From contig OZ244651.1 of NCBI GenBank assembly GCA_965218695.1, positions 928,001-992,000 of the forward strand: a stretch of 64,000 nt of DNA, in the 5' to 3' direction. The stretch comes from Nitrosopumilus sp. GTDB lineage: Archaea > Thermoproteota > Nitrososphaeria > Nitrososphaerales > Nitrosopumilaceae. A program made the translations under genes and the position numbers. A model generated the notes under the pieces. That model ran no database searches. It saw only the letters and a list, made by a program, of their open reading frames with translations, and had not been told where the DNA came from. Shown piece by piece: positions 5,458 to 37,414 of the stretch. Position 1 is the stretch's first letter. Every line of letters begins with the position of its first letter.

Positions 5458-6708
5458 TTGGTACAGGGAATAAAAGAAAAAATTGAGAACGCCAATAAAG
5501 AGGCAATAAATAAGATCCTTACATCAAGACCAATCTTAGTTGATGTCAAACCAGCTATAGAAGTAATACCTGAAATGAAAAAAAATATGATTATGCATGC
5601 TGGTCCTCCAATCGACTGGCAAAATATGTGCGGGCCTATGAGGGGAGCTATAATAGGAACTTTGTTATTCGAAGGTCTTGCTAAAACGAAAGATGAAGCT
5701 GTTAAGATTAGCGAAAATGGAGAAATTGAATTCTCACCAAATCACGAGCATCACGCTGTAGGCCCTATGGCTGGAATCACTTCTGCATCCATGCCAGTCT
5801 TCGTTGTGAAAAATGAGCCACACAACAATACAGCTTTTGCACGTGTGGTTGAAGATAAGATAGGATTTGGGGATTATGGAGATGAGGCAGTTGAAAGTTT
5901 GCGCTTTTGGAGAGATAAAGCGTCTGTTGCAATTGGCATCGCAGCCCGCAAAGCTGGGGGGATTGATTTGAAGAGCATTATTGCTAAGGCTTTGTTTAGG
6001 GGAGATGAACTACATAACAGACCTGTTGCTGGAAGCTCCTTGTTTACTAATATCATATTATCATATCTAATCGAGGTTGGCATGGATCATAAGGAACTGC
6101 TTCCAGTTGCAAAGTTTTTGACCGATAATGAAATATTTTTCCTTGGTCTGAGCATGGGTGCTTGTAAAGCAACCATGGATGCCGCGCACGGAATTGATTA
6201 TAGTACATTAGTTACTGTTATGGCAAGGAATGGTGTTGAGTTTGGAATCAAGGTGAGTGGTTTAGGCGATGAATGGTTTACTGGGCCAGCAAATATGATC
6301 GATGGCTTATTCCTCCCGGGATTCACAGCCGATGATGCTAATCCGGACATCGGCGACAGTGCTATTACGGAAACTGCTGGACTGGGAGGCTTCACTTTGG
6401 CAGCTGGACTTGCAATTATTAATTTGGTTGGAGGAACTCCTGATGAGGCAATACGGTATAGCAAGCAAATGCAAGAAATAACTATCGCGAAAAACAATGG
6501 ATACACAATTCCTGCTCTTAACTTTGAGGGAACGGCGACTGGAATTGATATAAGGAAGGTTGTCAAGACTGGAATTCTTCCAATCATTGATACTGCTATT
6601 GCCAGTAAGAACCCAGGGCAGCGTATGATAGGTGCTGGCTTGGTTAAGCCGCCGCTAGAAGCTTTTAAGAAAGCCCTACAGGGGTTTGCAAAAAAATACG
6701 ATATCTAA
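5458..6708 (+). CDS. ylbE: DUF1116 protein (YlbE/AllG/YahG family, carbamoyltransferase subunit)
   Basis: HAGPP, AVGPMAG, GDELHNR, MARNGVEFGI and DIGDSAITET motifs. Confidence 0.92.
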   Translation: MVQGIKEKIENANKEAINKILTSRPILVDVKPAIEVIPEMKKNMIMHAGPPIDWQNMCGPMRGAIIGTLLFEGLAKTKDEAVKISENGEIEFSPNHEHHAVGPMAGITSASMPVFVVKNEPHNNTAFARVVEDKIGFGDYGDEAVESLRFWRDKASVAIGIAARKAGGIDLKSIIAKALFRGDELHNRPVAGSSLFTNIILSYLIEVGMDHKELLPVAKFLTDNEIFFLGLSMGACKATMDAAHGIDYSTLVTVMARNGVEFGIKVSGLGDEWFTGPANMIDGLFLPGFTADDANPDIGDSAITETAGLGGFTLAAGLAIINLVGGTPDEAIRYSKQMQEITIAKNNGYTIPALNFEGTATGIDIRKVVKTGILPIIDTAIASKNPGQRMIGAGLVKPPLEAFKKALQGFAKKYDI

Positions 6709-6780
6709 TTTATCTATCGCTTTTTTGCACGCGAGTAAGGTACGCCAATAGATGCTGGTTGTAAAGTTCTCTTATAGGTA

Positions 6781-7880
6781 TACTGACGATCAAAAGTTTG
6801 TGCACAATGCTTCATATTTTCGGCTGGTAAATTTGAGAATGTCAAGCTTGAACCTAATGGTTCGATAATACAACGAGACTGCCCGGTGCATGTCCTGAAA
6901 TGTCCGGTAATATTCTGAGACAAGCAGGACGCGCTTTCCCTGGTGCCAGCATTCCTCCATCGCGTTGAGGTACGGCGATCCCTTTGGCAAATAGATCATC
7001 TTGACGTCTCTGTTGCTGCGCAGAAATTCCTTGACACGTTTTGAGCGGTGCTGCGGAGCCCGGTCTGTAGTCACCACCACTTTTCCAAAATGCCTGTGCA
7101 GATCCTTGAGATACCTGACAAACGTGGGCCCGTCAAATTTCTCGTACGTCCGGAAAAACTGCCTGCCGTCCCGGGCAATCGAGCCGTACGCTGCGATCCT
7201 CTTGTGGCTGCCGGTGTATGGTACGCTTATGGGATGGCCCACGGGAGACCAGTATTTGCGACCGACCATCACGTCGTGTATGAAAATTACCTCATCCTCC
7301 ATTACCGTGGTGAATCCCTCATTTTCCAGGCGTGAAACGCGCTTATTGAAGCGGTATTTCCAGTTCTGCACGGCTTTTTTGCCTGCCCTGTTAACGTGGA
7401 TCTTTCGCGGTGCCTTTGGAGACAGGTTGTGCTGGTGCATAATTTTCCTGACGTACGTGATGTGAAGTTTTACGCCCGCGTCCTTGCGTATATTCTCCTG
7501 CAACTCCGAGGGCGTGATCCTACGGCAGGATGCCCTTGCGATTATTCCGTCCATGATGTCTCGTGAAATCTTTCTGGGTCGTCCGCATCGGGGAAGGTCA
7601 CGGAGGCCTTGCAGGCCTCCGTCGTCGAATCGGCGCAACCAGTTACGGACCCAGTTTGGGCTCCGTCCCTGGATGTCGGCAGTCTCCTCCACGGACATGT
7701 TGCGCACGCGAACCATGCGCACCGAGACCATCCGGATTCTGACCTTGTAATCTTTTTCTTTTCTGTACGCCTTTTCGAGTTCTTCCAGTTTGGTGTCGTC
7801 CATGTATCCCTGAAATGGGCCTGATCTAGAAACTTTGCGGTTGGCTAGGGCATTTGTTCAAAGACTTTTGCGCGTCAGTA
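6781..7880 (-). mobile_element. IS630-family element A (transposase 6790..7803)
   Basis: HTH plus DDE (EDE..DRAPQH..PYLNAMEECW); TIR TACTGACGnnCAAAAG; TA duplication at 6779-80 and 7881-82. Confidence 0.93.
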
Positions 7881-7971
7881 TAGATGCCGTTACTGCAATG
7901 GCCATAATATGGGAAAGCATCAGCATAAGTTGATGCGGTGCTTTAACACCAACAGCTTGGAAACTAAATTG

Positions 7972-8179
7972 GTAAGTGTTCACGTGGTTTAACTCATTTT
8001 TAGGCGTATTTTGCAATCTCCGCCAAGTAATCCAATTTCTTGTTTTTCCATGTCATTACACATGAAAAGAAATTCGCCATCCACGTCATCGTCTCCTCTG
8101 CCCTTATGCTGCCCCGTATTTTTCTGTGCACGACTATCTCGCGCAACCCGCGTTCTGCAGCATTGTTTGTAGGCGGGAT
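7972..8179 (-). mobile_element. Partial IS66-family element (208-bp terminal piece)
   Basis: Starts GTAAGTGTTCACGTGG, identical to one end of the full copies, and abuts the full copy at 8180. Confidence 0.9.
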
Positions 8180-9705
8180 GTAAGTGTTCACGTGGTTTAA
8201 CTCATTTTTAGGCGTATTTTGCAATCTCCGCCAAGTAATCCAATTTCTTGTTTTTCCATGTCATTACACATGAAAAGAAATTCGCCATCCACGTCATCGT
8301 CTCCTCTGCCCTTATGCTGCCCCGTATTTTTCTGTGCACGACTATCTCGCGCAACCCGCGTTCTGCAGCATTGTTTGTAGGCGGGATCTTTGGGTTCAGC
8401 ACGAACCGGAACAGGTCGCTGCCAGCATTGCTGATCTTGACCATGAATTTTTCCAATATTGGATCGTCGGCGTACCTTGCAACGATCTTTTCGATGCATG
8501 ACGTCAGCATGGCAGACGCGTTGTCCCGGAGAGAGCGCGAGCGTTTCCTGCTTGCCCTTCTGGCATAATCATAGATTATGCGCAGGTGCTTCAGGACGTT
8601 GCGCGCGCCTGGGCAGTCCGGATTGCGGTTGCAGATGTCCCTGGCCTCGCGTATTATGTGCGACCAGCAGCGCTGGACGCGGTATTTTCCGTACGCCGTC
8701 CAGCCGTCGCACACTAACGTGCCGTCCCAACCCCCAAGCGCTTCTTTCAGAACCTTTGCCCCCCGGCTGTCCCGTATCACGTACAGCGCGTGCCCGGTCA
8801 GCGGATCGTGCAGTATCCACACCCAGACGTTGCGGCCGTTTAGGTGAATCGATGTCTCGTCGGCGTGCAGTATCTTGGCCTTGCGTATCATGGCGGCAAT
8901 GGCTGCCGCAGGGGCGCCCAGCGACGTTCCCAGCCTGCGCATTATGTTGTGCGCCGTGCCCGAGGAGAGTGTAATTCCGTACCGCGACATGCGGTCTGCG
9001 ATCATCCTAAACGGCATGCGACACACGTAATCGTCTGCAACATCAGTCGTTATGCTCGGATCGTAGCTGCCCTTGTCTGGAAGGCCGGTCTCGGGCTTGA
9101 TGTCCACCAGACCGCAGGAGCAGCGACACGTGTTTATGGTGTGGCGCGTGGTGATGACCTTTATCGTGCGCTCCACCTTGGTAATGTCGCGTTTTTCTGA
9201 CTGCACTATGGAAAGGCTACCCGAGCCGCATTCGGGGCAGGCCTCCGGGGTGTGTTCCTCAAACTCGGTGGGTTTTGGCTTGCGGGTGCGGCCCATGTAG
9301 CCTTTTTGCCCCCCGCGCGACTTCCCGCTGCCGGCCGCATCCACGCGGTCCTTTTGATCCCGGGAGGCTTTTGTGGATTTATTGTAGGCATTCTTTTCGT
9401 CGCCTTTTCCCTTTGTGTCAGGCCATCCGGGCCCCCTTTTTTGTGATGACGGGGTGTTGTAATTGTCATGCCGCACCAGCCTGCGCTTAAGATCAGCAAC
9501 TGCCAGATTCAATTCCTCAATTATCTGCCCTTGCATCTCAATCGTCTGCTTGAGCTTGATGTTCTCAGTCTTGAGATCCGTGTACATCTTTTTGAGTTCA
9601 GCCTGGCTTTTCACATCGGGTTTGGATTACCATCCTATTTGGATCTGTGGTTTGCACAAAATTTACCCAAGAGTGAACTGAATTAGGCACGACGTGAACA
9701 CTTAC
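8180..9705 (-). mobile_element. Single-ORF IS66-family element, copy 1 (transposase 8208..9614)
   Basis: 1526 bp; TIR GTAAGTGTTCACGT; coiled-coil, Zn finger, HADET, QRCWSH and TNNAAERGLR motifs; TSD CTAAATTG at 7964-7971 and 9706-9713. Confidence 0.95.
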
Positions 9706-9727
9706 CTAAATTGTAAAGCATCCACCA

Positions 9728-9873: not shown

Positions 9874-11399
9874 GTAAGTGTTCACGTGGTTTAACTCATT
9901 TTTAGGCGTATTTTGCAATCTCCGCCAAGTAATCCAATTTCTTGTTTTTCCATGTCATTACACATGAAAAGAAATTCGCCATCCACGTCATCGTCTCCTC
10001 TGCCCTTATGCTGCCCCGTATTTTTCTGTGCACGACTATCTCGCGCAACCCGCGTTCTGCAGCATTGTTTGTAGGCGGGATCTTTGGGTTCAGCACGAAC
10101 CGGAACAGGTCGCTGCCAGCATTGCTGATCTTGACCATGAATTTTTCCAATATTGGATCGTCGGCGTACCTTGCAACGATCTTTTCGATGCATGACGTCA
10201 GCATGGCAGACGCGTTGTCCCGGAGAGAGCGCGAGCGTTTCCTGCTTGCCCTTCTGGCATAATCATAGATTATGCGCAGGTGCTTCAGGACGTTGCGCGC
10301 GCCTGGGCAGTCCGGATTGCGGTTGCAGATGTCCCTGGCCTCGCGTATTATGTGCGACCAGCAGCGCTGGACGCGGTATTTTCCGTACGCCGTCCAGCCG
10401 TCGCACACTAACGTGCCGTCCCAACCCCCAAGCGCTTCTTTCAGAACCTTTGCCCCCCGGCTGTCCCGTATCACGTACAGCGCGTGCCCGGTCAGCGGAT
10501 CGTGCAGTATCCACACCCAGACGTTGCGGCCGTTTAGGTGAATCGATGTCTCGTCGGCGTGCAGTATCTTGGCCTTGCGTATCATGGCGGCAATGGCTGC
10601 CGCAGGGGCGCCCAGCGACGTTCCCAGCCTGCGCATTATGTTGTGCGCCGTGCCCGAGGAGAGTGTAATTCCGTACCGCGACATGCGGTCTGCGATCATC
10701 CTAAACGGCATGCGACACACGTAATCGTCTGCAACATCAGTCGTTATGCTCGGATCGTAGCTGCCCTTGTCTGGAAGGCCGGTCTCGGGCTTGATGTCCA
10801 CCAGACCGCAGGAGCAGCGACACGTGTTTATGGTGTGGCGCGTGGTGATGACCTTTATCGTGCGCTCCACCCTGGTAATGTCGCGTTTTTCTGACTGCAC
10901 TATGGAAAGGCTACCCGAGCCGCATTCGGGGCAGGCCTCCGGGGTGTGTTCCTCAAACTCGGTGGGTTTTGGCTTGCGGGTGCGGCCCATGTGGCCTTTT
11001 TGCCCCCCGCGCGACTTCCCGCTGCCGGCCGCATCCACGCGGTCCTTTTGATCCCGGGAGGCTTTTGTGGATTTATTGTAGGCATTCTTTTCGTCGCCTT
11101 TTCCCTTTGTGTCAGGCCATCCGGGCCCCCTTTTTTGTGATGACGGGGTGTTGTAATTGTCATGCCGCACCAGCCTGCGCTTAAGATCAGCAACTGCCAG
11201 ATTCAATTCCTCAATTATCTGCCCTTGCATCTCAATCGTCTGCTTGAGCTTGATGTTCTCAGTCTTGAGATCCGTGTACATCTTTTTGAGTTCAGCCTGG
11301 CTTTTCACATTGGGTTTGGATTACCATCCTATTTGGATCTGTGGTTTGCACAAAATTTACCCAAGAGTGAACTGAATTAGGCACGACGTGAACACTTAC
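9874..11399 (-). mobile_element. IS66-family element, copy 2 (transposase 9902..11308)
   Basis: 1526 bp, same TIR; TSD TAAAGTTA at 9866-9873 and 11400-11407. Confidence 0.95.
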
Positions 11400-11602
11400 T
11401 AAAGTTATACCAATTTCACGTCCCACAGTCAATGAAGATCAAGACGATGTTGAAAAGATACGCCGCTGAGACAGACTGCGATACCAAGGACCGCATGATG
11501 CTGATCATCAGAGTCAAACGTGATGGAATAACCATGAGGGATTCTGCAAAATCCCTGGGAAAGTCAGCCTCGTGGGGCTACAAGTGGCACGAGCGCTACC
11601 TA

Positions 11603-12704
11603 TAGTGAAAAGCGAAAATTCGTTCCAAGTTCAGCACCTCGGACCGGAAACTATGTAGATCAGATTGTCGCCTAACGCGGCATGAGCAAAGTAACACGGG
11701 AAGAACTCGAAGCAGCATACAAAAAAGAAAAAAACCTCAAGGTGGGAGTCAGAATGCTTGCAGTACACATGGTATATTTTCGCAAAGTGAGCATAGATGA
11801 TGCAGCCGTCAGCCTTCTGCGATGCCCGCGATGGGTGCGCAACTGGCTGGAACGCTTCGAGAACGGAGGCCTGCAAGGCCTCCGGGACCTTCCCAGATCC
11901 GGCAGGCCGCCCAAGATTTCGCCGGAAGCGATAGACGGCATACTGGACAAGGTAGACCGGCTCAAGACCACTCCTGCCGAACTGCAGCAGGTCATACACA
12001 GGGAGACGGGAACAAAGATGCACAGGACGAATGTCAGGAAAATCATGCAAAAATACGGCCTGTCTCCCAAGGGGTCGCAAAAAATCCACATCAACAGGGC
12101 CACCAAAACGGCCGTAAAAAGTTGGCAATATCGCCTCAAAAAGAGAATTTCACGCCTAGAAAAGGACAGTTTTGTCCTGGTCGTGCAAGACGAGGCGTTC
12201 TTCATACACGACGTAAAATCTGGCCGCAAGTATTGGTCGCCTGTGGGGGTGCCAATAACCGTGCCATACACGGGAAGCCACAAAAGAATTACCGTGTACG
12301 GTTCAGTCACGACGGACGGCAGGCAGTTCTTCAGGACTGCCAGCGGGTTCAACGCGCCCACTTTTGTTGCATATCTCAAGGCCATGCAGAGACATTTTGG
12401 GAAGGTGGCCGTCATGGTGGACAGGGCATCCCCGCACCGCGCAAAAGCCGTCCGGACGCTGCTGCGCGAGAACAGGAACATCAGGATCATATACCTGCCA
12501 AAAGGCTCGCCGTATCTCAACGCCGTGGAAGAATGCTGGCACCAGGGAAAACGGAACCTGCTTGTCTCAGAATACTACAAAACCTTCGTGGACATGCACA
12601 GAGCCGTCTCCCAGTATTATCGAACTGCGAGATTCAATCTGGACTTGATCAAATACTTTAACAGAAAAGCCGAATTATTTTGCAGGAACTTTTGATCGCC
12701 ACTA
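11603..12704 (+). mobile_element. IS630-family element B, copy 1 (transposase 11682..12695)
   Basis: 1102 bp, TAGTG...CACTA ends, TA duplication; QDE..DRASPH..YLNAVEECW. Confidence 0.94.
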
Positions 12705-13811
12705 TAGAAGTCGGATTTGACAGGCTGGGAAACATGCCGCGCTCCGGCAGGCCGACCAAGGCGAGCAAGGCAGACATGAAGAAGATCAGAAAGGCCGCAT
12801 GCAGTAAACCGGTCTGGACGGGCAGGGAGATGCAGCAATACATCCAACAGAAGACCGGAGTAAAGTACGAACTCGGATATGTGCGCCAGATACTGCGCGG
12901 GTGGGGCTATTCCCAAAAGGTTCCCGTAGGAAAACATGCAAGAAGGGCACCTGACGAGGAGATCAGGAAATTCCAAAAAGAGATGCCAGAGATTATAAAA
13001 AAAGAACAGTGAAGGAACAGTCGTAGCGATACAGGACGAGTCCATAGTAATCTCCGATGCGCGGCCGCGAAGACGCGGCTACACCAGGAAGGGAATACGG
13101 GCGTTTTTCACGTACACCGGCTCACACTCCAAGACGATAATCCATGGACTAATCACCACGGACGGCAGGGGCATGTTCCGGCAGTACGATGCGTTTACCA
13201 AGGACACCTTTGAGGACTTTCTAAGGCAGGCGATGTACAGGTTCAAGAAGATCTGCCTGATCATGGACAAGGCCTCCCAGCACAGGGCATCAAACATACG
13301 CAAACTGCTTGATGGCACAGACGGCCTGGAGATAATCTTCCTGCCAACTGCGACCCCGGACCTGAGCGCCATAGAGACGTACTGGAGGGATCTCAAACGG
13401 GCAGTGCTTGACGTGCCGTACACCAGCCTGAGCATGCTCCGCGAGGCGATCACCAGGTACGCGAGGTACAAAAAACCGAATCTGGTAGTCGAGAATTTTC
13501 TGTACAGGGCCATCTAGAACGACATCAAACCGCACCGGATCCACGCCGCCTAGCGTGTGCCATGCACGGCGCACCAGAGCATGCAATGTCTAATGTTTGG
13601 AGCGTCTTTTCTCGTCATTTGGGAATTCAACGCACCTCGTAATTTCCAGAGACGGCTGTTGCATCAAAAATTTATGAGCGATTTTGATATGAATTTTTCA
13701 TTGCTGGTATACATCCACCACTCCGAATAATACATATGTGCCAAAAATCTGATCTGCCCATAAAACAAATTAACAAATTGATCAGATTTATGAAAAATTT
13801 GGTGATAATGG

Positions 13812-15383: not shown

Positions 15384-15490
15384 GTGAATATCTATAGAGA
15401 GAGTAGGTTTGATATAAGTATGATCTTCAATATCAGTAGATGGAAATGTGTTTTTTCAGGACAACCTGATCTTGCCGCGTTCCTTATGAT

Positions 15491-16987
15491 CACTAGGCGT
15501 TCGCCATTATTAGACTCTGGGTGTTAAAAATGGAGCGCGCGAGTCTTACACGTTCAAATGAAAAACAAGCAATCGCTCCAAATACAGTCCGCCGAATCTG
15601 CATATAAGATCATCGGCCCCGTACTGTTTTCCCTGTTGCAGATCAAGTTCTCAGACAGGTACAACGCCCTATACGGACCGGTCCACTTTTTTGAACGCTT
15701 GTTTGGCATGTGCAGGCACACCGAATACGCAGAGACTGCATGGTCCAGCGACCCGGACGGCGGGACGGGCATTCCCACGGGCAGGTGGCTGCTTGACAGG
15801 ATACGCCATATCCGGTACGACTACATGTTAAAGCGGTGCCAGGCAATAACGGATCGCACCGTGCGCAGGATGAGGCGGCACGGCATGTTCAGGGAGCCGG
15901 TGGACATTGCAATCGACAAACACCTGGTCTGCAGGTACGACAGGTTCCGGAGGATCGTCAACACCATAAAGTCAAAACCAAAAAAGGGAACGTACAACTT
16001 TAACTGCCTGGCGACTGCAAACTGCATCGTGGCAGGCTCCAGGGCGTTTCTGGCAGCCCGGCTGGTCAGAAGGGGAGATACAGACCTCGAGGTGGTCTCA
16101 GGACTGATAGCAGACTGCAGAAGGCAGGGGATAAGGATCAAGTCACTAAAGATAGACCGGGAGTTCTTTTCTGTGGACATCATTAACATGCTGGAGCGTG
16201 AAGGGATCCCGTTCATGGTGCCTGCAATCAAGACCAAGGGCGTCAAAAAAGCCGTAGAGGAGTTCAAAGACGGCGGGAAGGCGACGGTGTCGCGGCATTC
16301 CATAGATTCGGGACGCGATACTGCCGAGTTTACACTGATAATCCAAAAGAGGAAGAACGGCCACTTTACGCTTGCCACCAACGCCACGGTGCCGCAGGTG
16401 CTGGGGTTCGAGTCCAGCAACGGCCTGACAGGCGCACACGGATTCGCAGAACAGTACCGTCTCCGCTGGGGAGTGGAGACTGCGTACAGCAACTACGAGT
16501 CACTCAGGCCCCGCACCACGAGCAGGAACGAGTCGGTGCGCATGCTGCTGCTGTTCTTCCCGATATTCATTTACAACGCCTGGGCGCTGGTCCGCCACCT
16601 GCTCCGGATCTCATTCCACGGCAGGCACATGACGCTCATAAAGATGCTCAGGCTGTTTCTCAGGTTCATGAAAGAGTTGGGCCTGGCCGAACCACCCACG
16701 TGAATTGTGTTTCTTGACGCATTCGTATGCAAGTGCCGGCCGCAAGGCTGCGCGGACATGCAGCAACCGGTGCCGGGGTGCCAACGGAATGTGCGCAGGA
16801 CAGTCAACTGGGATTATCTTTCGGATTTGTGGGCAGCTGGTTGTTAATCATGGGTTTGATAAAGGGGGTGTCAGGCATGTGCAATTAGACACATTTCCAA
16901 CTACTGCAATATAGGGTTGGCGTGTAATTCTGGTTCAACCCGCTCCTGCATGCCTCCCGCCGCGTCTTTACCGGCGGCATCCTAGTG
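15491..16987 (+). mobile_element. ISH3/IS4-like element (transposase 15558..16703)
   Basis: DIAIDKH, DREFFS and YRLRWGVETAY motifs; imperfect TIR CACTAGG..CGCC; no TSD seen, so boundaries are tentative. Confidence 0.8.
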
Positions 16988-17525: not shown

Positions 17526-17529
17526 GCTC

Positions 17530-28170: not shown

Positions 28171-28206
28171 ATGACAGTATATATAGAGAATTGGTTTAAT
28201 ATTAAT

Positions 28207-29805
28207 ATGATCCTCAATATTGTTAAAAAGAATTTTTTTAGGGATTCAGTTCAAATGATGCAATTTTCTCAGCGATTAAGAGATGAGCAGGGAGTTGTTG
28301 ATGCAGCTATCGTGATGGCAACAGAATTCAACAAAAATACTCTCAAGAACATGGATCTATTAACGGAAGATGGCATTGCTGCTACCGAAAATGATACATT
28401 AATTTCAATTAATTGTGAAGACGAAAATTCGTTGAACGATACTATCCAAAAGGCAGAACAATTACTTGTATCAACTTCTGTGAAGACAAAAAATGAATTC
28501 ACTAGTCTGACATCTGCATTGGATTCCTTTAGCAATGCAAACATTGCATCATTATCAATTCCCGGTCAATTTGTTAAAGAAATGGCTGCAGAGTTGTTAG
28601 AAAAAAAACTCCATCTATTTGTTTTCAGTGATCATGTATCATTAGATGATGAAATCTACTTGAAAAATCTTGCGCTTGAAAACAATGTATTATTCATGGG
28701 GCCTGAAGCTGGGACATCCATACTTGATGGAAATGTGTTTGGATTTGGAAATAGGGTAAGAAAAGGTTCTGTCGGAATTATTGGAGCGTCAGGCACTGGA
28801 ATTCAAGAGTCCGCCACTCTACTAGATTTGTTTGGTGAGGGCATATCTCATGCAATAGGGGTTGGTGGAAGAGACTTACAGAAAGATGTGGGTGGGATGA
28901 TGACAATGAAGGCCATGGAAATTTTTGAAGATGATCCAAACACTAAAGCTGTTCTACTCGTTTCAAAACCAGTCGATGATGGTGTTAGAAATAATATCAT
29001 AAACAAAATCAACAATTTTTCAAAGAAAAATTATGTTTTTTGTTTCATTAGTGATAAAGAAAACCGTGAAGATTCTGCCAAAATAAAATTTTCCAAATCA
29101 ATTCAAACATCTGTGCTAAAAATTCTGCAGTCTCTAAATAGTAACGTTTACAAAAAAACTAAGAATGTTGTTAAGAACCAAGTTAACGATTCAATTAAAC
29201 TGGCTGAATCACTTTCCAAAGATTTAAACGAGGAGCAAAAATTTGTCAGGGGATTTTTTGCTGGGGGTACCCTTTGTTACGAATCCAAAACACTTTTGGA
29301 ACAAATTGTGGGAAAAGTATACTCTAATCTTAGCTCAGATGATGCATATTCCATTACGGGAGATGCACCCAGTAAAGAAAATACTTTAATTGATTTTGGT
29401 GAAGAGCAATTTACTTCTGCAAGACCACACCCTATCATCGATCCTTTATTGAGAAAGAACCGAATTCTTGAAGAAGCCAATGACCCAAACGTAAGCGTGA
29501 TAATTATTGATATAATATGTGGAATTAACGCTGCAAAAAATACCATGGCATTTCATGCTGAAACCATAAAAAAAGCTATTCAGATTGCTAAGGAAAAAGG
29601 CAGAAGACTGCCTGTTTTTACATACATTTGTGGAACAGAAAAGGATGTAAGTGAAAATGAGCTCCAGATGTTAAGAGATTCTGGAGCCAGAATTTTTACA
29701 TCCAATGCCTTGATGAGTTTTGCGGCTGCGCTTGTTGTTAAGAATTTAGATGAAAATTTGATGAAAAAAATTCGGTGTGAATTTTTGGAGGCAGAATTAT
29801 TTTGA
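28207..29805 (+). CDS. fdrA: FdrA/AllF/YahF family acyl-CoA-synthetase-like protein
   Basis: FRDSVQMM, FSDHV, MGPEAGT, GASGTGIQE, GVGGRDL, GGTLCYE and RPHPIIDP motifs; likely start ATG 28207. Confidence 0.92.
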   Translation: MILNIVKKNFFRDSVQMMQFSQRLRDEQGVVDAAIVMATEFNKNTLKNMDLLTEDGIAATENDTLISINCEDENSLNDTIQKAEQLLVSTSVKTKNEFTSLTSALDSFSNANIASLSIPGQFVKEMAAELLEKKLHLFVFSDHVSLDDEIYLKNLALENNVLFMGPEAGTSILDGNVFGFGNRVRKGSVGIIGASGTGIQESATLLDLFGEGISHAIGVGGRDLQKDVGGMMTMKAMEIFEDDPNTKAVLLVSKPVDDGVRNNIINKINNFSKKNYVFCFISDKENREDSAKIKFSKSIQTSVLKILQSLNSNVYKKTKNVVKNQVNDSIKLAESLSKDLNEEQKFVRGFFAGGTLCYESKTLLEQIVGKVYSNLSSDDAYSITGDAPSKENTLIDFGEEQFTSARPHPIIDPLLRKNRILEEANDPNVSVIIIDIICGINAAKNTMAFHAETIKKAIQIAKEKGRRLPVFTYICGTEKDVSENELQMLRDSGARIFTSNALMSFAAALVVKNLDENLMKKIRCEFLEAELF

Positions 29806-29957
29806 TACCGGGCAATCTTCGAGTAATAAATATCGGCTTAAAGCTTTTTTATCAATCCCTAACGGAACAAAAGATTGAAGCCGTTCACGTCATCTGGGAA
29901 CCAAAACCAAAACTTGAAAAAGAGATTGAAGATATACTTGATAGAATGGACGTGTGA
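29802..29957 (+). CDS. 51-aa FdrA-associated small protein (stand-alone equivalent of the FdrA/YahF C-terminal segment)
   Basis: TTG overlaps the fdrA stop; MIPGNLRVINIGLKLFYQSLTEQKIEAVHVIWEPKPKLEKEIEDILDRMDV matches the VINIG..F..L..V.W.P pattern; below the ORF track size limit. Confidence 0.8.
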   Translation: MIPGNLRVINIGLKLFYQSLTEQKIEAVHVIWEPKPKLEKEIEDILDRMDV

Positions 29958-29968: not shown

Positions 29969-30043
29969 GTATGAAGTCAGCTGCCTCATTTACTCAGGTA
30001 CGAATCTGTATGGCCGTCGGGTTTTTACGCCCGGCTTAATGTA
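29969..30043. mobile_element. 91-bp palindromic MITE, left part (right part 32682..32697), split by IS630-B copy 3
   Basis: Ends GTATGAAGTCAGC and GCTGACCTCATAC; alignable end to end with 19081..19171; degenerate TSD TTCAAATG/TTTAATTG. Confidence 0.78.
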
Positions 30044-32679
30044 TAGTGGCGATCAAAAGTTCCTGCAAAATAATTCGGCTTTTCTGTTAAAGTATTTGAT
30101 CAAGTCCAGATTGAATCTCGCAGTTCGATAATACTGGGAGACGGCTCTGTGCATGTCCACGAAGGTTTTGTAGTATTCTGAGACAAGCAGGTTCCGTTTT
30201 CCCTGGTGCCAGCATTCTTCCACGGCGTTGAGATACGGCGAGCCTTTTGGCAGGTATATGATCCTGATGTTCCTGTTCTCGCGCAGCAGCGTCCGGACGG
30301 CTTTTGCGCGGTGCGGGGATGCCCTGTCCACCATGACGGCCACCTTCCCAAAATGTCTCTGCATGGCCTTGAGATATGCAACAAAAGTGGGCGCGTTGAA
30401 CCCGCTGGCAGTCCTGAAGAACTGCCTGCCGTCCGTCGTGACTGAACCGTACACGGTAATTCTTTTGTGGCTTCCCGTGTATGGCACGGTTATTGGCACC
30501 CCCACAGGCGACCAATACTTGCGGCCAGATTTTACGTCGTGTATGAAGAACGCCTCGTCTTGCACGACCAGGACAAAACTGTCCTTTTCTAGGCGTGAAA
30601 TTCTCTTTTTGAGGCGATATTGCCAACTTTTTACGGCCGTTTTGGTGGCCCTGTTGATGTGGATTTTTTGCGACCCCTTGGGAGACAGGCCGTATTTTTG
30701 CATGATTTTCCTGACATTCGTCCTGTGCATCTTTGTTCCCGTCTCCCTGTGTATGACCTGCTGCAGTTCGGCAGGAGTGGTCTTGAGCCGGTCTACCTTG
30801 TCCAGTATGCCGTCTATCGCTTCCGGCGAAATCTTGGGCGGCCTGCCGGATCTGGGAAGGTCCCGGAGGCCTTGCAGGCCTCCGTTCTCGAAGCGTTCCA
30901 GCCAGTTGCGCACCCATCGCGGGCATCGCAGAAGGCTGACGGCTGCATCATCTATGCTCACTTTGCGAAAATATACCATGTGTACTGCAAGCATTCTGAC
31001 TCCCACCTTGAGGTTTTTTTCTTTTTTGGTAAGTGTTCACGTCGTGCCTAATTCAGTTCACTCTTGGGTAAATTTTGTGCAAACCACAGATCCAAATAGG
31101 ATGGTAATCCAAACCCGATGTGAAAAGCCAGGCTGAACTCAAAAAGATGTACACGGATCTCAAGACTGAGAACATCAAGCTCAAGCAGACGATTGAGATG
31201 CAAGGGCAGATAATTGAGGAATTGAATCTGGCAGTTGCTGATCTTAAGCGCAGGCTGGTGCGGCATGACAATTACAACACCCCGTCATCACAAAAAAGGG
31301 GGCCCGGATGGCCTGACACAAAGGGAAAAGGCGACGAAAAGAATGCCTACAATAAATCCACAAAAGCCTCCCGGGATCAAAAGGACCGCGTGGATGCGGC
31401 CGGCAGCGGGAAGTCGCGCGGGGGGCAAAAAGGCCACATGGGCCGCACCCGCAAGCCAAAACCCACCGAGTTTGAGGAACACACCCCGGAGGCCTGCCCC
31501 GAATGCGGCTCGGGTAGCCTTTCCATAGTGCAGTCAGAAAAACGCGACATTACCAAGGTGGAGCGCACGATAAAGGTCATCACCACGCGCCACACCATAA
31601 ACACGTGTCGCTGCTCCTGCGGTCTGGTGGACATCAAGCCCGAGACCGGCCTTCCAGACAAGGGCAGCTACGATCCGAGCATAACGACTGATGTTGCAGA
31701 CGATTACGTGTGTCGCATGCCGTTTAGGATGATCGCAGACCGCATGTCGCGGTACGGAATTACACTCTCCTCGGGCACGGCGCACAACATAATGCGCAGG
31801 CTGGGAACGTCGCTGGGCGCCCCTGCGGCAGCCATTGCCGCCATGATACGCAAGGCCAAGATACTGCACGCCGACGAGACATCGATTCACCTAAACGGCC
31901 GCAACGTCTGGGTGTGGATACTGCACGATCCGCTGACCGGGCACGCGCTGTACGTGATACGGGACAGCCGGGGGGCAAAGGTTCTGAAAGAAGCGCTTGG
32001 GGGTTGGGACGGCACGTTAGTGTGCGACGGCTGGACGGCGTACGGAAAATACCGCGTCCAGCGCTGCTGGTCGCACATAATACGCGAGGCCAGGGACATC
32101 TGCAACCGCAATCCGGACTGCCCAGGCGCGCGCAACGTCCTGAAGCACCTGCGCATAATCTATGATTATGCCAGAAGGGCAAGCAGGAAACGCTCGCGCT
32201 CTCTCCGGGACAACGCGTCTGCCATGCTGACGTCATGCATCGAAAAGATCGTTGCAAGGTACGCCGACGATCCAATATTGGAAAAATTCATGGTCAAGAT
32301 CAGCAATGCTGGCAGCGACCTGTTCCGGTTCGTGCTGAACCCAAAGATCCCGCCTACAAACAATGCTGCAGAACGCGGGTTGCGCGAGATAGTCGTGCAC
32401 AGAAAAATACGGGGCAGCATAAGGGCAGAGGAGACGATGACGTGGATGGCGAATTTCTTTTCATGTGTAATGACATGGAAAAACAAGAAATTGGATTACT
32501 TGGCGGAGATTGCAAAATACGCCTAAAAATGAGTTAAACCACGTGAACACTTACCTTTTTTGTATGCTGCTTCGAGTTCTTCCCGTGTTACTTTGCTCAT
32601 GCCGCGTTAGGCGACAATCTGATCTACATAGTTTCCGGTCCGAGGTGCTGAACTTGGAACGAATTTTCGCTTTTCACTA
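30044..32679 (-). mobile_element. IS630-family element B, copy 3, disrupted by IS66 copy 3
   Basis: Both ends intact with TA duplication; the ORF 5' end (MSKVTREELEAAY) lies beyond the IS66 at 32563-32600. Confidence 0.93.
31029..32554 (+). mobile_element. IS66-family element, copy 3 (transposase 31120..32526)
   Basis: 1526 bp; TSD CTTTTTTG at 31021-28 and 32555-62. Confidence 0.95.
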
Positions 32680-32744
32680 TAGTTGCTGACCTCATACTTT
32701 AATTGTTCTTAATTATTTATATAGTTTAATAAAAAATCTACCTC

Positions 32745-33743
32745 ATGAATAGTAAAGGACAAAAAACCCAAAGCGGATCTAAGAAAAAAGTAGTAGTAGC
32801 AATTGGCGGAAATTCCATTTTGCAACAAGATCAAGTTGGCACATATGAAGAACAGCAAGAAAATATTAAAAAAATGGCAAAAAGTATTGCTTCTATTATT
32901 CTAGGAAAACATCGATACGAAATTTCAGTTCTTATTCATGGTAATGGGCCTCAGGTGGGAAACCTCCTTCTTCAACAGGAATCGGCAACGAATGTTCCTA
33001 ATCAGCCGATGCACACAGTTATTGCAATGACACAAGGCCAAATCGGATACATGATACAACAAGCACTTCAAAACGAGTTTATAAAATTAAAAAAAAATAA
33101 AAGGGTTGTAAGTTTGATTACTCAAACAGTAGTCACCGAAAAAGATTCAAACCTTTCTAACGTCCCTCCAACTAAACCCATAGGTCCTTTTTTTACAGAG
33201 TCTGAAGCAAAAAAATTAGGAAATAGTACAAACCATGTCTATAAGAAGGTAAAACCTACTGGGAAAAAAACGTGGAGAAGGGTAGTTCCATCTCCAAAGC
33301 CACTTGAAATTGTAGAATTAGATATAGTGAAAAAATTGATTGATGATTCCTGCTTATTGATTGCTGGCGGCGGCGGCGGCATTCCTGTAAGTAAGAATTG
33401 TTCTGGTTTTGAGGCAGTAAACTGCCTGGTTGATAAGGATCATGCTGCATCTTTGCTTGCAAAATCTATTGGAGCTTCAGTACTTTTTTTTCTAACAGAC
33501 ATAGATAAAGTGAAATTGAATTATGGTAAACCAAATGAAAGCGATTTGGATACTATTACTGTAAAAACTGCAAAAAAGCTCCTAAAAGAGGGAGCATTTT
33601 TGGAGGGAAGTATGAAACCAAAGATACTAGCATCCTTAGATTTCTTAGAATCTGGGGGAGATATTGCTATTATCACATCTTTTGATCATGCCGTAGCAGC
33701 ATTAAATGGTAAAGCTGGTACAAAAATTACTTCAAAAGATTAA
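32745..33743 (+). CDS. arcC: Carbamate kinase
   Basis: AIGGNS, HGNGPQVG, TQGQIGY, PTKPIGPF, RRVVPSP, GGGGIPV, DKD and GSMKPK motifs. Confidence 0.96.
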   Translation: MNSKGQKTQSGSKKKVVVAIGGNSILQQDQVGTYEEQQENIKKMAKSIASIILGKHRYEISVLIHGNGPQVGNLLLQQESATNVPNQPMHTVIAMTQGQIGYMIQQALQNEFIKLKKNKRVVSLITQTVVTEKDSNLSNVPPTKPIGPFFTESEAKKLGNSTNHVYKKVKPTGKKTWRRVVPSPKPLEIVELDIVKKLIDDSCLLIAGGGGGIPVSKNCSGFEAVNCLVDKDHAASLLAKSIGASVLFFLTDIDKVKLNYGKPNESDLDTITVKTAKKLLKEGAFLEGSMKPKILASLDFLESGGDIAIITSFDHAVAALNGKAGTKITSKD

Positions 33744-34602
33744 GTTTTGCTAATATTAAATTACCAAAGTCGCTATCAAAAACAAACACGGTTGCCATAA
33801 TCGCACCTATGCCTGCATCGATACCACTGGAATTGCCCACTTGAATAAGATCCATCAAAGGAAGTTTTGTTTCGTTCTCTCCTGACAATAGAAAACTAAC
33901 AAATACTTCGAGGGGCTCAATTACGATGCCATTCTGAGAGTAATCAATGAATTTTTTGCTAGCCCAGTTAGTGTTTCCCATGATAACAAATTTGGTGAGC
34001 TTGTGATTTGAGAATAAAAGAATTCTATTCAAGCAAAATAAGAAACCAACTATAAAATCGTCCCCTGAAGGAGTGAACCCGTTTCCCAAACCAACAATAC
34101 TTGAAAGCTGGTTTGACAGTTTTGCCAAATCATGTTTTTGTGTAGATTCTGATATTGACTTGATTGAATTTGCCAATTTATTGAAAAATGGTGAGCGACT
34201 ATCCAGAATGCTTCCTAAAGTGTCAAAAAGACGGAGTTCATCAACAGAAAGCAAAACTCTACTCTGCAAACCAGCTTTTATTTCATGATCTTTTGTTGTC
34301 AGATAAATTTTCGAGTTTTTGGTATTAAATCCGATAGTTCCCAACTTTAACCCGTTTGGTGTTCTGATGGCTTTTTTGTTGATACAATCTAATTTCAAAA
34401 AATTAACGGGTGAATTAAGATTCAGATTAATTGGAGCTTTTACATCCTTGGAAGTTAAACAGATTAAATCGTCATCTATCGTTTTCAAATAAACTGTATT
34501 TTCAAATACTTTTACAGTTTCGCCAATTGTTTCACCCTTAGAATACGATTCTATAAAATTTAATGCTGATTTTCCAACAGTGTTAATTTCAAAATCCAAC
34601 AC
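33727..34602 (-). CDS. ylbF: DUF2877 protein (YlbF/AllH/YahE family)
   Basis: GLGNGFTPSGDDFIVG and GNSSGID motifs; GGTGA upstream of the start. Confidence 0.85.
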   Translation of the reverse strand: MLDFEINTVGKSALNFIESYSKGETIGETVKVFENTVYLKTIDDDLICLTSKDVKAPINLNLNSPVNFLKLDCINKKAIRTPNGLKLGTIGFNTKNSKIYLTTKDHEIKAGLQSRVLLSVDELRLFDTLGSILDSRSPFFNKLANSIKSISESTQKHDLAKLSNQLSSIVGLGNGFTPSGDDFIVGFLFCLNRILLFSNHKLTKFVIMGNTNWASKKFIDYSQNGIVIEPLEVFVSFLLSGENETKLPLMDLIQVGNSSGIDAGIGAIMATVFVFDSDFGNLILAKLNLLK

Positions 34603-34625: not shown

Positions 34626-36151
34626 GTAAGTGTTCACGTCGTGCCTAATTCAGTTCACTCTTGGGTAAATTTTGTGCAAACCACAGATCCAAATAGGATG
34701 GTAATCCAAACCCGATGTGAAAAGCCAGGCTGAACTCAAAAAGATGTACACGGATCTCAAGACTGAGAACATCAAGCTCAAGCAGACGATTGAGATGCAA
34801 GGGCAGATAATTGAGGAATTGAATCTGGCAGTTGCTGATCTTAAGCGCAGGCTGGTGCGGCATGACAATTACAACACCCCGTCATCACAAAAAAGGGGGC
34901 CCGGATGGCCTGACACAAAGGGAAAAGGCGACGAAAAGAATGCCTACAATAAATCCACAAAAGCCTCCCGGGATCAAAAGGACCGCGTGGATGCGGCCGG
35001 CAGCGGGAAGTCGCGCGGGGGGCAAAAAGGCCACATGGGCCGCACCCGCAAGCCAAAACCCACCGAGTTTGAGGAACACACCCCGGAGGCCTGCCCCGAA
35101 TGCGGCTCGGGTAGCCTTTCCATAGTGCAGTCAGAAAAACGCGACATTACCAGGGTGGAGCGCACGATAAAGGTCATCACCACGCGCCACACCATAAACA
35201 CGTGTCGCTGCTCCTGCGGTCTGGTGGACATCAAGCCCGAGACCGGCCTTCCAGACAAGGGCAGCTACGATCCGAGCATAACGACTGATGTTGCAGACGA
35301 TTACGTGTGTCGCATGCCGTTTAGGATGATCGCAGACCGCATGTCGCGGTACGGAATTACACTCTCCTCGGGCACGGCGCACAACATAATGCGCAGGCTG
35401 GGAACGTCGCTGGGCGCCCCTGCGGCAGCCATTGCCGCCATGATACGCAAGGCCAAGATACTGCACGCCGACGAGACATCGATTCACCTAAACGGCCGCA
35501 ACGTCTGGGTGTGGATACTGCACGATCCGCTGACCGGGCACGCGCTGTACGTGATACGGGACAGCCGGGGGGCAAAGGTTCTGAAAGAAGCGCTTGGGGG
35601 TTGGGACGGCACGTTAGTGTGCGACGGCTGGACGGCGTACGGAAAATACCGCGTCCAGCGCTGCTGGTCGCACATAATACGCGAGGCCAGGGACATCTGC
35701 AACCGCAATCCGGACTGCCCAGGCGCGCGCAACGTCCTGAAGCACCTGCGCATAATCTATGATTATGCCAGAAGGGCAAGCAGGAAACGCTCGCGCTCTC
35801 TCCGGGACAACGCGTCTGCCATGCTGACGTCATGCATCGAAAAGATCGTTGCAAGGTACGCCGACGATCCAATATTGGAAAAATTCATGGTCAAGATCAG
35901 CAATGCTGGCAGCGACCTGTTCCGGTTCGTGCTGAACCCAAAGATCCCGCCTACAAACAATGCTGCAGAACGCGGGTTGCGCGAGATAGTCGTGCACAGA
36001 AAAATACGGGGCAGCATAAGGGCAGAGGAGACGATGACGTGGATGGCGAATTTCTTTTCATGTGTAATGACATGGAAAAACAAGAAATTGGATTACTTGG
36101 CGGAGATTGCAAAATACGCCTAAAAATGAGTTAAACCACGTGAACACTTAC
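34626..36151 (+). mobile_element. IS66-family element, copy 4 (transposase 34717..36123)
   Basis: 1526 bp; TSD AACTATTT at 34618-25 and 36152-59. Confidence 0.95.
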
Positions 36152-36153
36152 AA

Positions 36154-36552
36154 CTATTTTTTTATGCTCGCCATGTAGGCACGCCAACTACCATACTCGG
36201 AAATATCTTTGTGGCTTGATTCGGCTATATCTCTCGGGAATAGTACGCCCTTGACTACGCGGCCATTGTTCAATCTAACATCTCCAAAATATAGATCAGG
36301 CGGTTCTGTATTTTTTATTCGCTGAAAGATTTCATTGCTCATGTGGTACATTTCGCCGGCAACTGAAACGCCACCTTTCTCGACTTCAAACATGCCAGGA
36401 TGAACGTCGTCAATAGAATAAAGACGATAAATTGGAATGGTGTGAAATTCGCCAAGAAATTCTGCACCTTGCAAATTTTTGTGCAGCGACAATCCGCGCA
36501 TCAGTGTTCCATTGACAAATAATTCGTTTCTAGACTTTATTACCATCACCAC
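36154..36552 (-). CDS. GGCT-fold protein resembling the allophanate hydrolase C-terminal domain
   Basis: LFVNGTLMRGLSLH, YRLY, GE.Y, EPPDLYFGDVRL and DISEYGSWRAY motifs. Confidence 0.8.
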   Translation of the reverse strand: MVMVIKSRNELFVNGTLMRGLSLHKNLQGAEFLGEFHTIPIYRLYSIDDVHPGMFEVEKGGVSVAGEMYHMSNEIFQRIKNTEPPDLYFGDVRLNNGRVVKGVLFPRDIAESSHKDISEYGSWRAYMASIKK

Positions 36553-37414
36553 AAGCAGTTTTTATCGCATTAATGAACCTTGAGGAGTCTGACACCCAAC
36601 CAAACACACCGCCTTGCATCTTAATCTGCTTTATTGCAGCTTCATAATTGCCAATATTAGTAGCAGCCGTACAATCTTTGAGGAGTATACACCAATATCC
36701 TATATCATTTGCCTCTCTCATTATTGCATGAACACAAACATCTGTGGTAACCCCTGTCATAATTAAGTGAGTTATGCCCAAGTTTTTTAAAGTTATAGAC
36801 AAATTACTATGACCAAATGCCCCCTTTGCAGATTTGTCTATTACAAATTCATTTTCAGCTGGGGCCAATTCATTTACAATGTCCCAGTTCTTTTGCCCCC
36901 TTACAAGAAGTTGTCCTTCTCCTCCTTCAGGCCTGTCCCCGATTCCAACACCCTGTCCTATTATCTTACTTCGTAGCAGTTTGTTGTATGGAAGATCAGC
37001 AAGATTTGGCATATGGCCCTCCCGTGTATGTACTACTTTGATATCAGTTCCTTTTCGTATCGTATTAAGTACATGCTTAATTGGTTTGATGGGAGTGGCA
37101 GTTAAAGAAAGATCATAGCCCATTATGTCTACATATCCTCCCTTAGCGCAAAAATCTACCTGCATATCTACAATCACAAATGCAGTTCTTGCAGAGTCAA
37201 GCTCTACATATGCTGTGTCACCAAAATTTGGGCAATCTTCAACTTCCATCTTTAGGAGTTTGCCTTTTATAGGTCCGTAAAGCCAGCTAGGAAACTTGAA
37301 GGTGCGAGTTTGTTGAAATGTTTCATAATCTTCCTGAACTCTAGCAAGTTTATCTTCTTTAGACAACTCAGAATCTTCTTTTACTTTGGTAGACTCCGAT
37401 AATAGATCCCTCAC
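36530..37414 (-). CDS. biuH: Biuret hydrolase-like cysteine hydrolase (isochorismatase family)
   Basis: DMQVDFCAKGGYVDIMGYDLSL, HTREGH..LADLP.NK, IDK..KG, TTDVCV and KMQGGVFG, as recalled for BiuH; extra N-terminal extension. Confidence 0.85.
   Translation of the reverse strand: MRDLLSESTKVKEDSELSKEDKLARVQEDYETFQQTRTFKFPSWLYGPIKGKLLKMEVEDCPNFGDTAYVELDSARTAFVIVDMQVDFCAKGGYVDIMGYDLSLTATPIKPIKHVLNTIRKGTDIKVVHTREGHMPNLADLPYNKLLRSKIIGQGVGIGDRPEGGEGQLLVRGQKNWDIVNELAPAENEFVIDKSAKGAFGHSNLSITLKNLGITHLIMTGVTTDVCVHAIMREANDIGYWCILLKDCTAATNIGNYEAAIKQIKMQGGVFGWVSDSSRFINAIKTACGDGNKV

Follow-up and report, generated by a model that had tools for sequence, protein, structure and literature searches.

Within the window, by which we mean the whole 64,000-nucleotide stretch of Nitrosopumilus sp. 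contig OZ244651.1 (assembly GCA_965218695.1, positions 928,001 to 992,000), twelve low-GC genes lie among insertion sequences (ISs) in a region bounded by an exact direct repeat. We consider it probable, though well short of certain, that this region is a horizontally acquired 32.3-kb genomic island, later colonized between its genes by host IS66, IS630 and IS4 elements, and that it holds a route from ureides to NH3 and ATP. Gene identities were assigned by Pfam and NCBIfam profile searches of the listed open reading frames (ORFs). Below, G000 is the window's own genome (genus g1, family f1), G306 is a genome of genus g10, L052 is a metagenome contig, and the DUF1116 and DUF2877 genes are also called AllG and AllH after their families. 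The cargo genes are:

5458..6708, + strand, DUF1116 subunit, AllG/YahG-like (PF06545, 259 bits; 86% identical to the G306 and L052 copies)
13812..15383, − strand, BMP/PnrA-family solute-binding protein (SBP) with a CFI-box-CTERM anchor tail (PF02608, 147 bits; NF041770)
19213..20823, + strand, double ATP-binding cassette (ABC) ATPase of a BMP-type importer (Pfam, NCBIfam)
20807..21859 and 21847..22782, both + strand, the two permeases of the BMP-type importer (Pfam, NCBIfam)
23463..24851, + strand, metal-dependent amidohydrolase/deaminase of the TRZ/ATZ or deoxyadenosine-deaminase type (PF01979; below every NCBIfam cut-off)
28108..29805, + strand, FdrA/YahF-like large subunit without the C-terminal tail (NF004760, 365 bits, model positions 1-500 of 555)
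29802..29957, + strand, 51-residue ORF equivalent to the missing FdrA tail (NF004760, model positions 510-554 of 555; start overlapping the stop of FdrA)
32745..33743, + strand, carbamate kinase (NF009007, 305.5 bits against a cut-off of 266)
33727..34602, − strand, DUF2877 subunit, AllH/YahE-like (PF11392, 61.8 bits; 79-85% identical to metagenome-contig copies)
36154..36552, − strand, stand-alone AH_C, a 132-residue allophanate-hydrolase C-terminal-domain protein (PF21986, 113 bits)
36530..37414, − strand, BiuH-like cysteine hydrolase (NF050097, 274 bits against a cut-off of 370)

The initial annotation had described twelve intact, AT-rich genes here, and all twelve are present. Each is full length by end-to-end alignment with relatives (12/12) and single-copy in the genome (12/12). 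Their GC content is 34-44% and their GC at third codon positions (GC3) is 25-41%, whereas the IS transposases and the flanking host genes have a GC3 of 59-74%. The host genome measures 2.63 Mb in 9 contigs with a GC content of 52.8% and encodes an archaeal AmoA, which identifies the organism as an ammonia-oxidizing archaeon (AOA), as had been supposed.

The cargo is delimited by the following features:

4948..5318, + strand, truncated host sbt gene (Na+-dependent bicarbonate transporter family) at the island edge, matching residues 1-124 of a 361-residue congener protein
5347..5364, + strand, left 18-bp direct repeat (from the genome-wide count of the 18-mer)
37645..37662, + strand, right 18-bp direct repeat (same count)
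37663..38156, unstranded, 494-bp host repeat directly after the right direct repeat, with copies 95% and 89% identical elsewhere on contig C1

The two 18-bp copies are exact and in direct orientation, one at each switch in GC content, and this 18-mer occurs twice in the whole genome, at the island ends. Together they enclose 32,280 bp, 48.7% of which is IS-derived and 39.5% cargo coding sequence. The repeat looks like an attachment site, flanking the region as att-like repeats flank integrated mobile elements of archaea, and integration through it is putative; no integrase domain was found among the leftover ORFs and no tRNA gene in the window, nor was another defined target recognized. Residues 125-361 of the sbt product have no match anywhere in the assembly. 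The insertion site could not be recovered from congeners, since three closed g1 genomes have sbt and aspS separated by 55-350 kb and sbt is missing from one congener. The 494-bp repeat may itself be a miniature inverted-repeat transposable element or an IS end. Farther to the right come an ornithine cyclodeaminase dependent on the nickel-pincer nucleotide (45543-46793; 543 bits, above its cut-off) and a transposase of the IS6 family (47485-48630).

Once its ISs are removed, the region has the same backbone as 16 metagenome contigs of 33-46% GC that carry the cluster, with FdrA, carbamate kinase, AllH and AH_C proteins 73-90% identical to those of the window; it differs by another transporter paralogue and by the amidohydrolase. 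That backbone (importer, FdrA, small ORF, carbamate kinase, DUF2877 and AH_C) is uninterrupted on metagenome contigs and in other Nitrososphaeria genomes. On L052 the order is AllG (86% identical), an opposite-strand BMP transporter (38-49%), FdrA–small ORF–carbamate kinase (75-84%) and an opposite-strand AllH, and on L040, L041, L043, L046 and L048 an AH_C gene is added after AllH. Among the 16 contigs, which were retrieved with FdrA, the small ORF is present on 16, carbamate kinase on 11, AllH on 10 and AH_C on 8. Many further metagenome proteins are 80-93% identical to FdrA, including one whose source bears the label tara, and a pattern scan of genome contigs for FdrA found no relative.

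We also surveyed the neighborhoods (±10 kb) of 16 AllG loci from genomes of the class. FdrA is encoded near AllG at 13 of the 16 loci, the BMP-type ATPase at 11, AllH at 10, carbamate kinase at 7, BiuH at 2, the amidohydrolase at 1 and AH_C at none. AH_C was found in only 3/401 class genomes, yet it adjoins AllH on 8/16 metagenome contigs. BiuH-like genes occur in 21/401 class genomes (E ≤1e-40), all below the curated cut-off, and in 13/14 AllG-positive genomes of families f1 and f3, a set in which two AllG matches are fragments and the genomes are related rather than independent. Co-occurrence and the search for a donor had both been named in the initial annotation as ways to check its proposal, and both came out in its favor: the gene order recurs uninterrupted elsewhere, and the cargo is foreign.

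Foreign origin follows from distribution, phylogeny and housekeeping genes. AllG (Pfam) is present in 46/401 sampled class genomes; within family f1 it occurs, among 401 f1 genomes, only in G000 and G306 and in 0/98 of the other sampled g1 genomes. G306 encodes a BiuH-like protein and an AllG that are 82% and 86% identical to the island proteins. A quick maximum-likelihood tree of AllG groups G000, G306 and L052 in one clade (support 100), sister to an f3 clade; duplicates (L002 = L024, L003 = L027) and the E. coli loci L054 and L055 were left out, the latter being already included as proteins. The aRF1 encoded on L045 is 79-84% identical to that of six g10 genomes and 55% identical to G000's own aRF1, whereas the FdrA and AllH of L045 are 84-85% identical to those of the window. 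The cargo genes are therefore far more alike than the housekeeping gene, which argues for lateral transfer from a g10-like lineage, and these comparisons indicate a low-GC, g10-like donor within the same archaeal family. The SBP's CFI-box-CTERM tail is 70-83% identical to five G306 proteins. No FdrA match was found in the G306 assembly with the island query, a weak negative since AllG lies there near a contig end.

BiuH and AllG are adjacent in G306 but sit at opposite ends of the island in G000, an arrangement to be expected if, hypothetically, a circular intermediate had been opened between them. At the G306 locus (L016, G306:C4) the two genes are divergent and 48 bp apart; beyond AllG, a methyltransferase-like ORF extends as far as the contig end. 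Identity to g10-type aRF1 is 54-55% for the aRF1 of G000 (C1:1879020-1880051) and of G076, its closest relative in the sample, against 63-66% for other g1 members; this divergence, with the high GC content, large genome and IS load, suggests that G000 and G076 form a fast-evolving sublineage.

The ISs that separate the cargo genes are:

6779..7885, − strand, IS630C, IS630-type (DDE_3 and HTH domains; related copies elsewhere in the genome)
7972..9710, − strand, IS66 copy 1 with a preceding 208-bp duplicate of its own end (8-bp target duplication)
9874..11403, − strand, IS66 copy 2 (8-bp target duplication)
11600..12706, + strand, IS630A copy 1 (copy comparison)
13173..13517, + strand, IS630 (DDE_3) fragment (domain match in leftover ORFs)
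15450..16800, + strand, IS4-like element, DDE_Tnp_1 (a second, identical copy elsewhere in the genome)
17196..18992, − strand, IS630 fragment, then IS630B copy 1 at 17898-18992 (copy comparison)
25037..26143, + strand, IS630A copy 2 (copy comparison)
26467..27931, + strand, IS630 debris, then IS630B copy 2 at 26837-27931 (copy comparison)
30042..32682, − strand, IS630A copy 3, interrupted by IS66 copy 3 at 31029-32554 (+ strand, 8-bp duplication; nested insertion)
34626..36151, + strand, IS66 copy 4, in the AH_C–AllH spacer of about 20 bp (8-bp duplication)

The island thus contains four IS66, three IS630A, two IS630B, one IS630C, one IS4-like element and several fragments. What the initial annotation termed IS debris consists mostly of whole elements. 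IS66 measures 1531 bp and has 31 full copies genome-wide, and IS630B has 12. An intact 8-bp target duplication is present at 4/4 IS66 copies. Because each IS66 has its own intact duplication and copy 3 is nested, the elements transposed in place, and the cargo order was not reshuffled by IS66–IS66 recombination. At copy 1, a 208-bp tandem duplicate of one IS66 end (7972-8179) stands before the full element, and the 8-bp duplication flanks the pair jointly. A 171-bp inverted repeat (79% identity) has one arm at 23142-23310, upstream of the amidohydrolase gene, and the other at 26467-26635, in IS630 debris; part of the 680-bp 'intergenic' stretch upstream of that gene may accordingly be old IS remains, given where the two arms lie.

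These data bear on whether the island is real. Low-GC contigs of a co-occurring archaeon could have been joined to the host during assembly through shared IS copies, and each cargo block does end at an IS, IS repeats being classic points of misassembly. Such a chimera is hardly credible in view of the junctions: island DNA lies on both sides of each IS66, with the matching 8-bp duplication; the 18-bp repeat is found at both outer junctions; and an empty site exists in other sequencing runs, with exactly 8 shared bases. Contigs of runs X5 and X7, which come from different coded organisms and studies, join position 34617 straight to 36152 over these 8 bases at about 90-93% nucleotide identity, so an IS-free AllH–AH_C junction exists elsewhere. 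Parts of the stretch are uncovered in X6 or X5, and the X7 contig ends at 37661. Moreover, the IS families are present at 12-31 copies across the host chromosome, and in run X1 the depth is similar on the island (about 5-8) and on the flanking host DNA (about 8-10).

A second question is whether the genes have outlived the ISs. After transfer, the island could have served as an IS landing pad and decayed into a relic, with operons broken and the pathway dead in this strain. In keeping with decay, ISs account for almost half of the island, the FdrA unit, carbamate kinase, AllH and the BiuH–AH_C pair now stand apart from each other, and just 23 bp separate the AllH start codon from IS66 copy 4. 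However, 12/12 ORFs are full length against their relatives and no IS lies within any cargo gene, though 77% of the non-IS DNA is coding. Carbamate kinase retains 62 bp of native upstream DNA, including a TATA-like motif also present in L040. An uninterrupted native upstream neighborhood is kept by 10 of the other 11 cargo genes, AllH being the sole exception; six of those ten have 62-680 bp of native upstream DNA, and four abut or overlap the upstream gene of their own unit. The insertion gaps are intergenic in 5/5 cases, with p ~6e-4 under uniform insertion, a test that takes no account of any IS preference for AT-rich intergenic DNA. Either selection preserves the genes or the ISs favor intergenic DNA. 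We regard a dead relic as unlikely and prefer an island whose genes were colonized around but kept.

The enzyme core of the island comprises FdrA, the small ORF, DUF1116, DUF2877 and carbamate kinase. The initial annotation had recognized a small subunit beside FdrA. It is indeed a separate ORF, but it corresponds to the detached C-terminal ~50 residues of FdrA itself: the FdrA ORF follows NF004760 to position 500 of 555 and the 51-residue ORF supplies positions 510-554. FdrA scores below the 433-bit cut-off of that model because its tail is a separate ORF. The overlap between the FdrA stop and the small-ORF start is kept in 12/12 metagenome loci examined, out of 16 (L042, L049, L051 and L053 fell outside this set), and an f3 genome likewise encodes the tail on its own. 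The small peptide matches AllF residues 510-554 and YahG residues 10-53. In E. coli the tail motif is thus part of a larger protein, closing AllF at its C-terminus in one cluster and opening YahG at its N-terminus in the other.

Modeling of the complex predicts that the ~50-residue peptide docks on DUF1116, with peptide residues 35-51 placed on the DUF1116 C-terminal helices (score 0.76, against 0.37 for the best control). The mark applied to such models is reached by 58/80 solved complexes and by 2/110 mismatched pairs; runs agreed on at least 89% of contacts and the partner predicted local distance difference test (pLDDT) value was at least 62. FdrA, AllF and YahF do not have the GHAG motif of the succinyl-CoA-synthetase type in that form, the aligned His being Gln in YahF, and the motif offers no mechanistic clue. 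Carbamate kinase passes its curated family cut-off (NF009007) and scores 344 bits with TIGR00746, just under that model's cut-off of 358.25. Three genomes of genus g34 (L015:7811-9721, L029 and L030) encode the cluster's carbamate kinase as one 636-residue ORF, in which a BMP/PnrA-like binding domain, its C-lobe ahead of its N-lobe, separates the two kinase halves; this fusion could be a ligand-sensing carbamate kinase.

In E. coli, AllFGH converts oxalurate and phosphate to oxamate and carbamoyl phosphate, from which AllK forms ATP (PMC11326118; PMC9843812). The island and E. coli AllFGH plus AllK share the same three protein families and a carbamate kinase, and we take this reaction as a model for the mechanism that we propose by analogy. 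The three families are encoded together here and their genes are contiguous in relatives. The island could hold a true AllFGHK orthologue that degrades oxalurate from neighbors catabolizing purines and allantoin, as in a 2025 floodplain paper; the Pfam AllG and AllH families do match, carbamate kinase is adjacent, and that paper (PMC12625717) proposes oxalurate degradation for AOA allFGHK genes. The island proteins are, however, nearer to the Yah paralogues, as judged by BLASTP: 386 bits for YahG against 339 for YlbE (AllG), 311 for YahF against 241 for FdrA (AllF), and 201 for YahI against 160 for YbcF (AllK). The corresponding identities are 47% and 43% for DUF1116, 36% and 31% for FdrA, and 42% and 34% for the kinase, and orthology to AllF, AllG and AllH over the Yah proteins is not borne out. 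In the quick AllG tree both E. coli proteins branch apart from the AOA clade. E. coli AllF carries its tail fused, and the All cluster stands among the allantoin genes allC, allD and allE, whereas no allantoin-pathway gene was found in the island; the genes that accompany the core are those of biuret and cyanuric-acid chemistry, namely BiuH and AH_C, joined in relatives by AtzD. Oxalurate degradation by a true orthologue is therefore improbable to us. The expected AllFGH-type enzyme feeding a carbamate kinase holds at the level of families, with Yah as the closer kin.

The E. coli YahE-YahF-YahG-YahI(-YahJ) cluster, from which the best E. coli matches come, resembles the island in further respects. 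YahF, like the island FdrA, is without the C-terminal tail, which in the Yah cluster is found in YahG, and the cluster also holds an amidohydrolase, YahJ, by annotation; the initial annotation had placed a deaminase there. Unlike in the Yah cluster, the tail of the island is a free peptide, BLASTP at E 1e-3 found no match between YahJ and the island amidohydrolase, and the Yah stretch shown has no BiuH, AH_C or BMP importer. A literature search by yah gene names found no published characterization of the Yah substrate.

Around this core lie the importer and three candidate hydrolases. The island encodes every part of a BMP/PnrA importer, with a Bmp SBP, a pair of BPD_transp_2 permeases and an ATPase of two cassettes, and import is their predicted function. 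The best solved relative of the SBP is the atrazine-binding protein 6pi5 (77.6 bits). For the amidohydrolase, the best solved relative is a methylthioadenosine/S-adenosylhomocysteine (MTA/SAH) deaminase and the second is atrazine chlorohydrolase AtzA (4v1x); the best NCBIfam match is 5'-deoxyadenosine deaminase, and no equivalog cut-off is reached. Across an alignment of 17 sequences its residues H76, H78, H238, E241, H275 and D326 do not vary, so that HxH, His, His, Asp and HxxE of the TRZ/ATZ–MtaD deaminases are all present; we take the HxH, His, His and Asp residues to be metal ligands, accompanied by the HxxE motif. Four of its relatives are 90-95% identical, the remainder at most 76%, and an orthologue encoded on L058, 92% identical, has genes for an AllG-like protein and a BMP SBP as neighbors.

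The BiuH-like protein is closer to BiuH (6azo, 240 bits; 6xjm, 227 bits) than to TrtA (6xix, 146 bits) or RutB (83 bits). Its DMQ.DFC, DK..KG.F and TTDVCV motifs align with those of the solved enzyme, in which a Lys-to-Ala variant chain marks the catalytic Lys, and the Asp, Lys and Cys are presumably the catalytic residues. AH_C is closest to an uncharacterized stand-alone protein (5c5z, 79.6 bits) and then to the C-domain of an allophanate hydrolase (4gyr, 32.7 bits). It is not itself an allophanate hydrolase (AtzF/AH), as the C-domain occurs alone, with no amidase-signature N-domain fused or co-encoded. The sole PF01425 match of the genome is GatA (535 bits against a cut-off of 481), beside GatB and AspRS; with no second amidase in the genome, canonical allophanate hydrolysis is unavailable. 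In three low-GC relatives, an AtzD/TrzD-family ring-opening amidohydrolase (PF09663, 486 bits) lies within the operon (L044:4603-5706, L045:5091-6197 and L051:5092-6195), where it follows FdrA, the small ORF and an AllG paralogue. AtzD was not found in the G000 genome.

These likenesses recall the s-triazine/cyanuric-acid/biuret pathway, which, itself or through its superfamily, provides best or second-best solved relatives for the SBP (6pi5), the amidohydrolase (4v1x, second), the BiuH-like protein (6azo/6xjm) and AH_C (4gyr), and whose AtzD family appears in related contigs. Unlike that pathway, the island genome has neither AtzD nor an AtzE/AtzF amidase-signature domain, and its terminal steps would be phosphorolysis and carbamate kinase rather than hydrolysis. 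The triazine-like substrate put forward in the initial annotation thus finds support in the solved relatives (AtzT, AtzA/MTA deaminase, BiuH, AH_C) and in the AtzD genes of three related contigs, but G000 lacks the AtzD that would go with it.

The same proteins admit a reading as two unrelated modules, in which a nucleoside importer and an adenosine- or MTA-type deaminase serve salvage or NH3 release, a biuret/ureide module stands separately, and no single pathway exists. The deaminase matches of the amidohydrolase agree with this, as does the fact that BMP SBPs are known as nucleoside receptors (the Pfam name is PnrA-like). The transporter is only 38-49% identical to that of L052, against 75-84% for the FdrA-side genes, a gap that makes the island a mosaic. 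Three observations count the other way: amidohydrolase orthologues or paralogues lie beside DUF1116 and BMP transporter genes in L058 and L019, the BMP transporter adjoins FdrA/AllG in 11/16 class loci, and every amidohydrolase score is under its family cut-off. We hold two independent modules to be the less likely arrangement, if the most serious of the alternatives, and proceed with a single route.

In this single route, which is plausible from the gene content, the BMP-type ABC importer would bring in an N-rich ureide or amino-heterocycle, from which the amidohydrolase and the BiuH-like cysteine hydrolase would each free NH3, the latter by turning a biuret-like compound into an allophanate-like N-acylurea. 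FdrA, the small peptide, DUF1116 and DUF2877 would then split the N-acylurea with phosphate to yield carbamoyl phosphate, with oxalurate, allophanate and carboxybiuret as candidate substrates. Carbamate kinase would convert carbamoyl phosphate to ATP and carbamate, which would fall to NH3 and CO2, and AH_C probably acts on a carboxylated carbamate or ureide intermediate. We infer every step from family membership and gene linkage, and likewise the substrates, the direction of flux and the continued working of the pathway in this strain. What the sequence data show is which genes these are, that they are intact and foreign, that their synteny is conserved, how the ISs came in and that FdrA is split.

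Several points weigh against this interpretation. FdrA, DUF1116 and carbamate kinase are nearer to the uncharacterized Yah paralogues than to the characterized AllF, AllG and AllK. The BiuH-like protein stays below the NCBIfam equivalog cut-off, which is reached in 0/401 class genomes, and the best solved match of the SBP is weak, which leaves its ligand assignment putative. AtzD is missing from G000, and the island yielded no other enzyme for ring opening, so a complete heterocycle pathway is not encoded there. G000 also encodes a urease. Since allophanate can decay to urea, release of the nitrogen might need no more than BiuH and urease. IS66 copy 4 sits immediately upstream of AllH and splits it from the BiuH–AH_C transcription unit, and the intergenic placement of the ISs may reflect their own preference. 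Finally, neither an integrase nor a tRNA target was found to account for the direct repeat. The proposal of import, NH3 release and ATP formation therefore stands as to intact genes that are linked elsewhere and is weakened by the missing ring opener, the missing allophanate amidase and the separation of AllH.

The initial annotation knew of no such combination in Nitrososphaerota, a claim that no longer holds, as a 2025 paper (PMC12625717) reports that AOA and comammox genomes combine biuH with bmpA-nupABC and allFGHK, as genomic potential only, and proposes biuret and oxalurate use. Those soil and floodplain neighborhoods resemble the island in a BiuH-like hydrolase whose N-terminus is extended, a BMP importer, FdrA/DUF1116/DUF2877 and a carbamate kinase, and in the proposed role, NH3 from purine- or urea-derived ureides. 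As far as the available text goes, the island differs from them in belonging to another AOA family (f1, AllG in 2/401), in its lateral acquisition, and in a stand-alone AH_C and a metal-dependent deaminase where they have a 'gatA-like' amidase. The same text states that atzD is absent from its nitrifier metagenome-assembled genomes, whereas island relatives carry an AtzD-family gene within the operon; apart from that statement, we found no literature linking AtzD or barbiturase to AOA. Nor did the literature yield such a cluster in this AOA family or its lateral transfer as a repeat-flanked island, although the supplement of PMC12625717 (Figures S12 and S15, Supplemental Results) may hold related synteny. 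The literature searched likewise gave no account of variants linked to AH_C and AtzD, of the small subunit as a free peptide or of the closer Yah kinship. What is new is the lateral transfer, the detached FdrA tail with its predicted place on DUF1116, and the AtzD-family genes in related operons; the gene-set combination was already published in 2025.

A broader hypothesis, which we advance tentatively and think doubtful rather than probable, is that split FdrA, the peptide, DUF1116 and DUF2877 together make up an N-acylurea phosphorylase of general scope, with no restriction to oxalurate. In marine and host-associated AOA it would be fed by BiuH-type or AtzD/barbiturase-type products (allophanate, carboxybiuret, ureidomalonate), and the module would move as an integrative island. 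If so, cyanurate-, barbiturate- or biuret-like compounds would supply both NH3, the energy substrate, and ATP by substrate-level phosphorylation. The system offers handles for biochemistry in its compact operon on IS-free contigs, its defined small subunit and the linked BiuH, AH_C and AtzD, which narrow the candidate substrates, and it may open a route to the function of the uncharacterized E. coli Yah cluster. In the usual view, ammonia oxidizers are confined to NH3, urea or cyanate. The substrates of nitrification would be broadened by a mobile module that frees NH3 from other N-rich compounds and recovers the carbamoyl group as ATP, and the island is a case in which such a module can spread laterally among AOA lineages.

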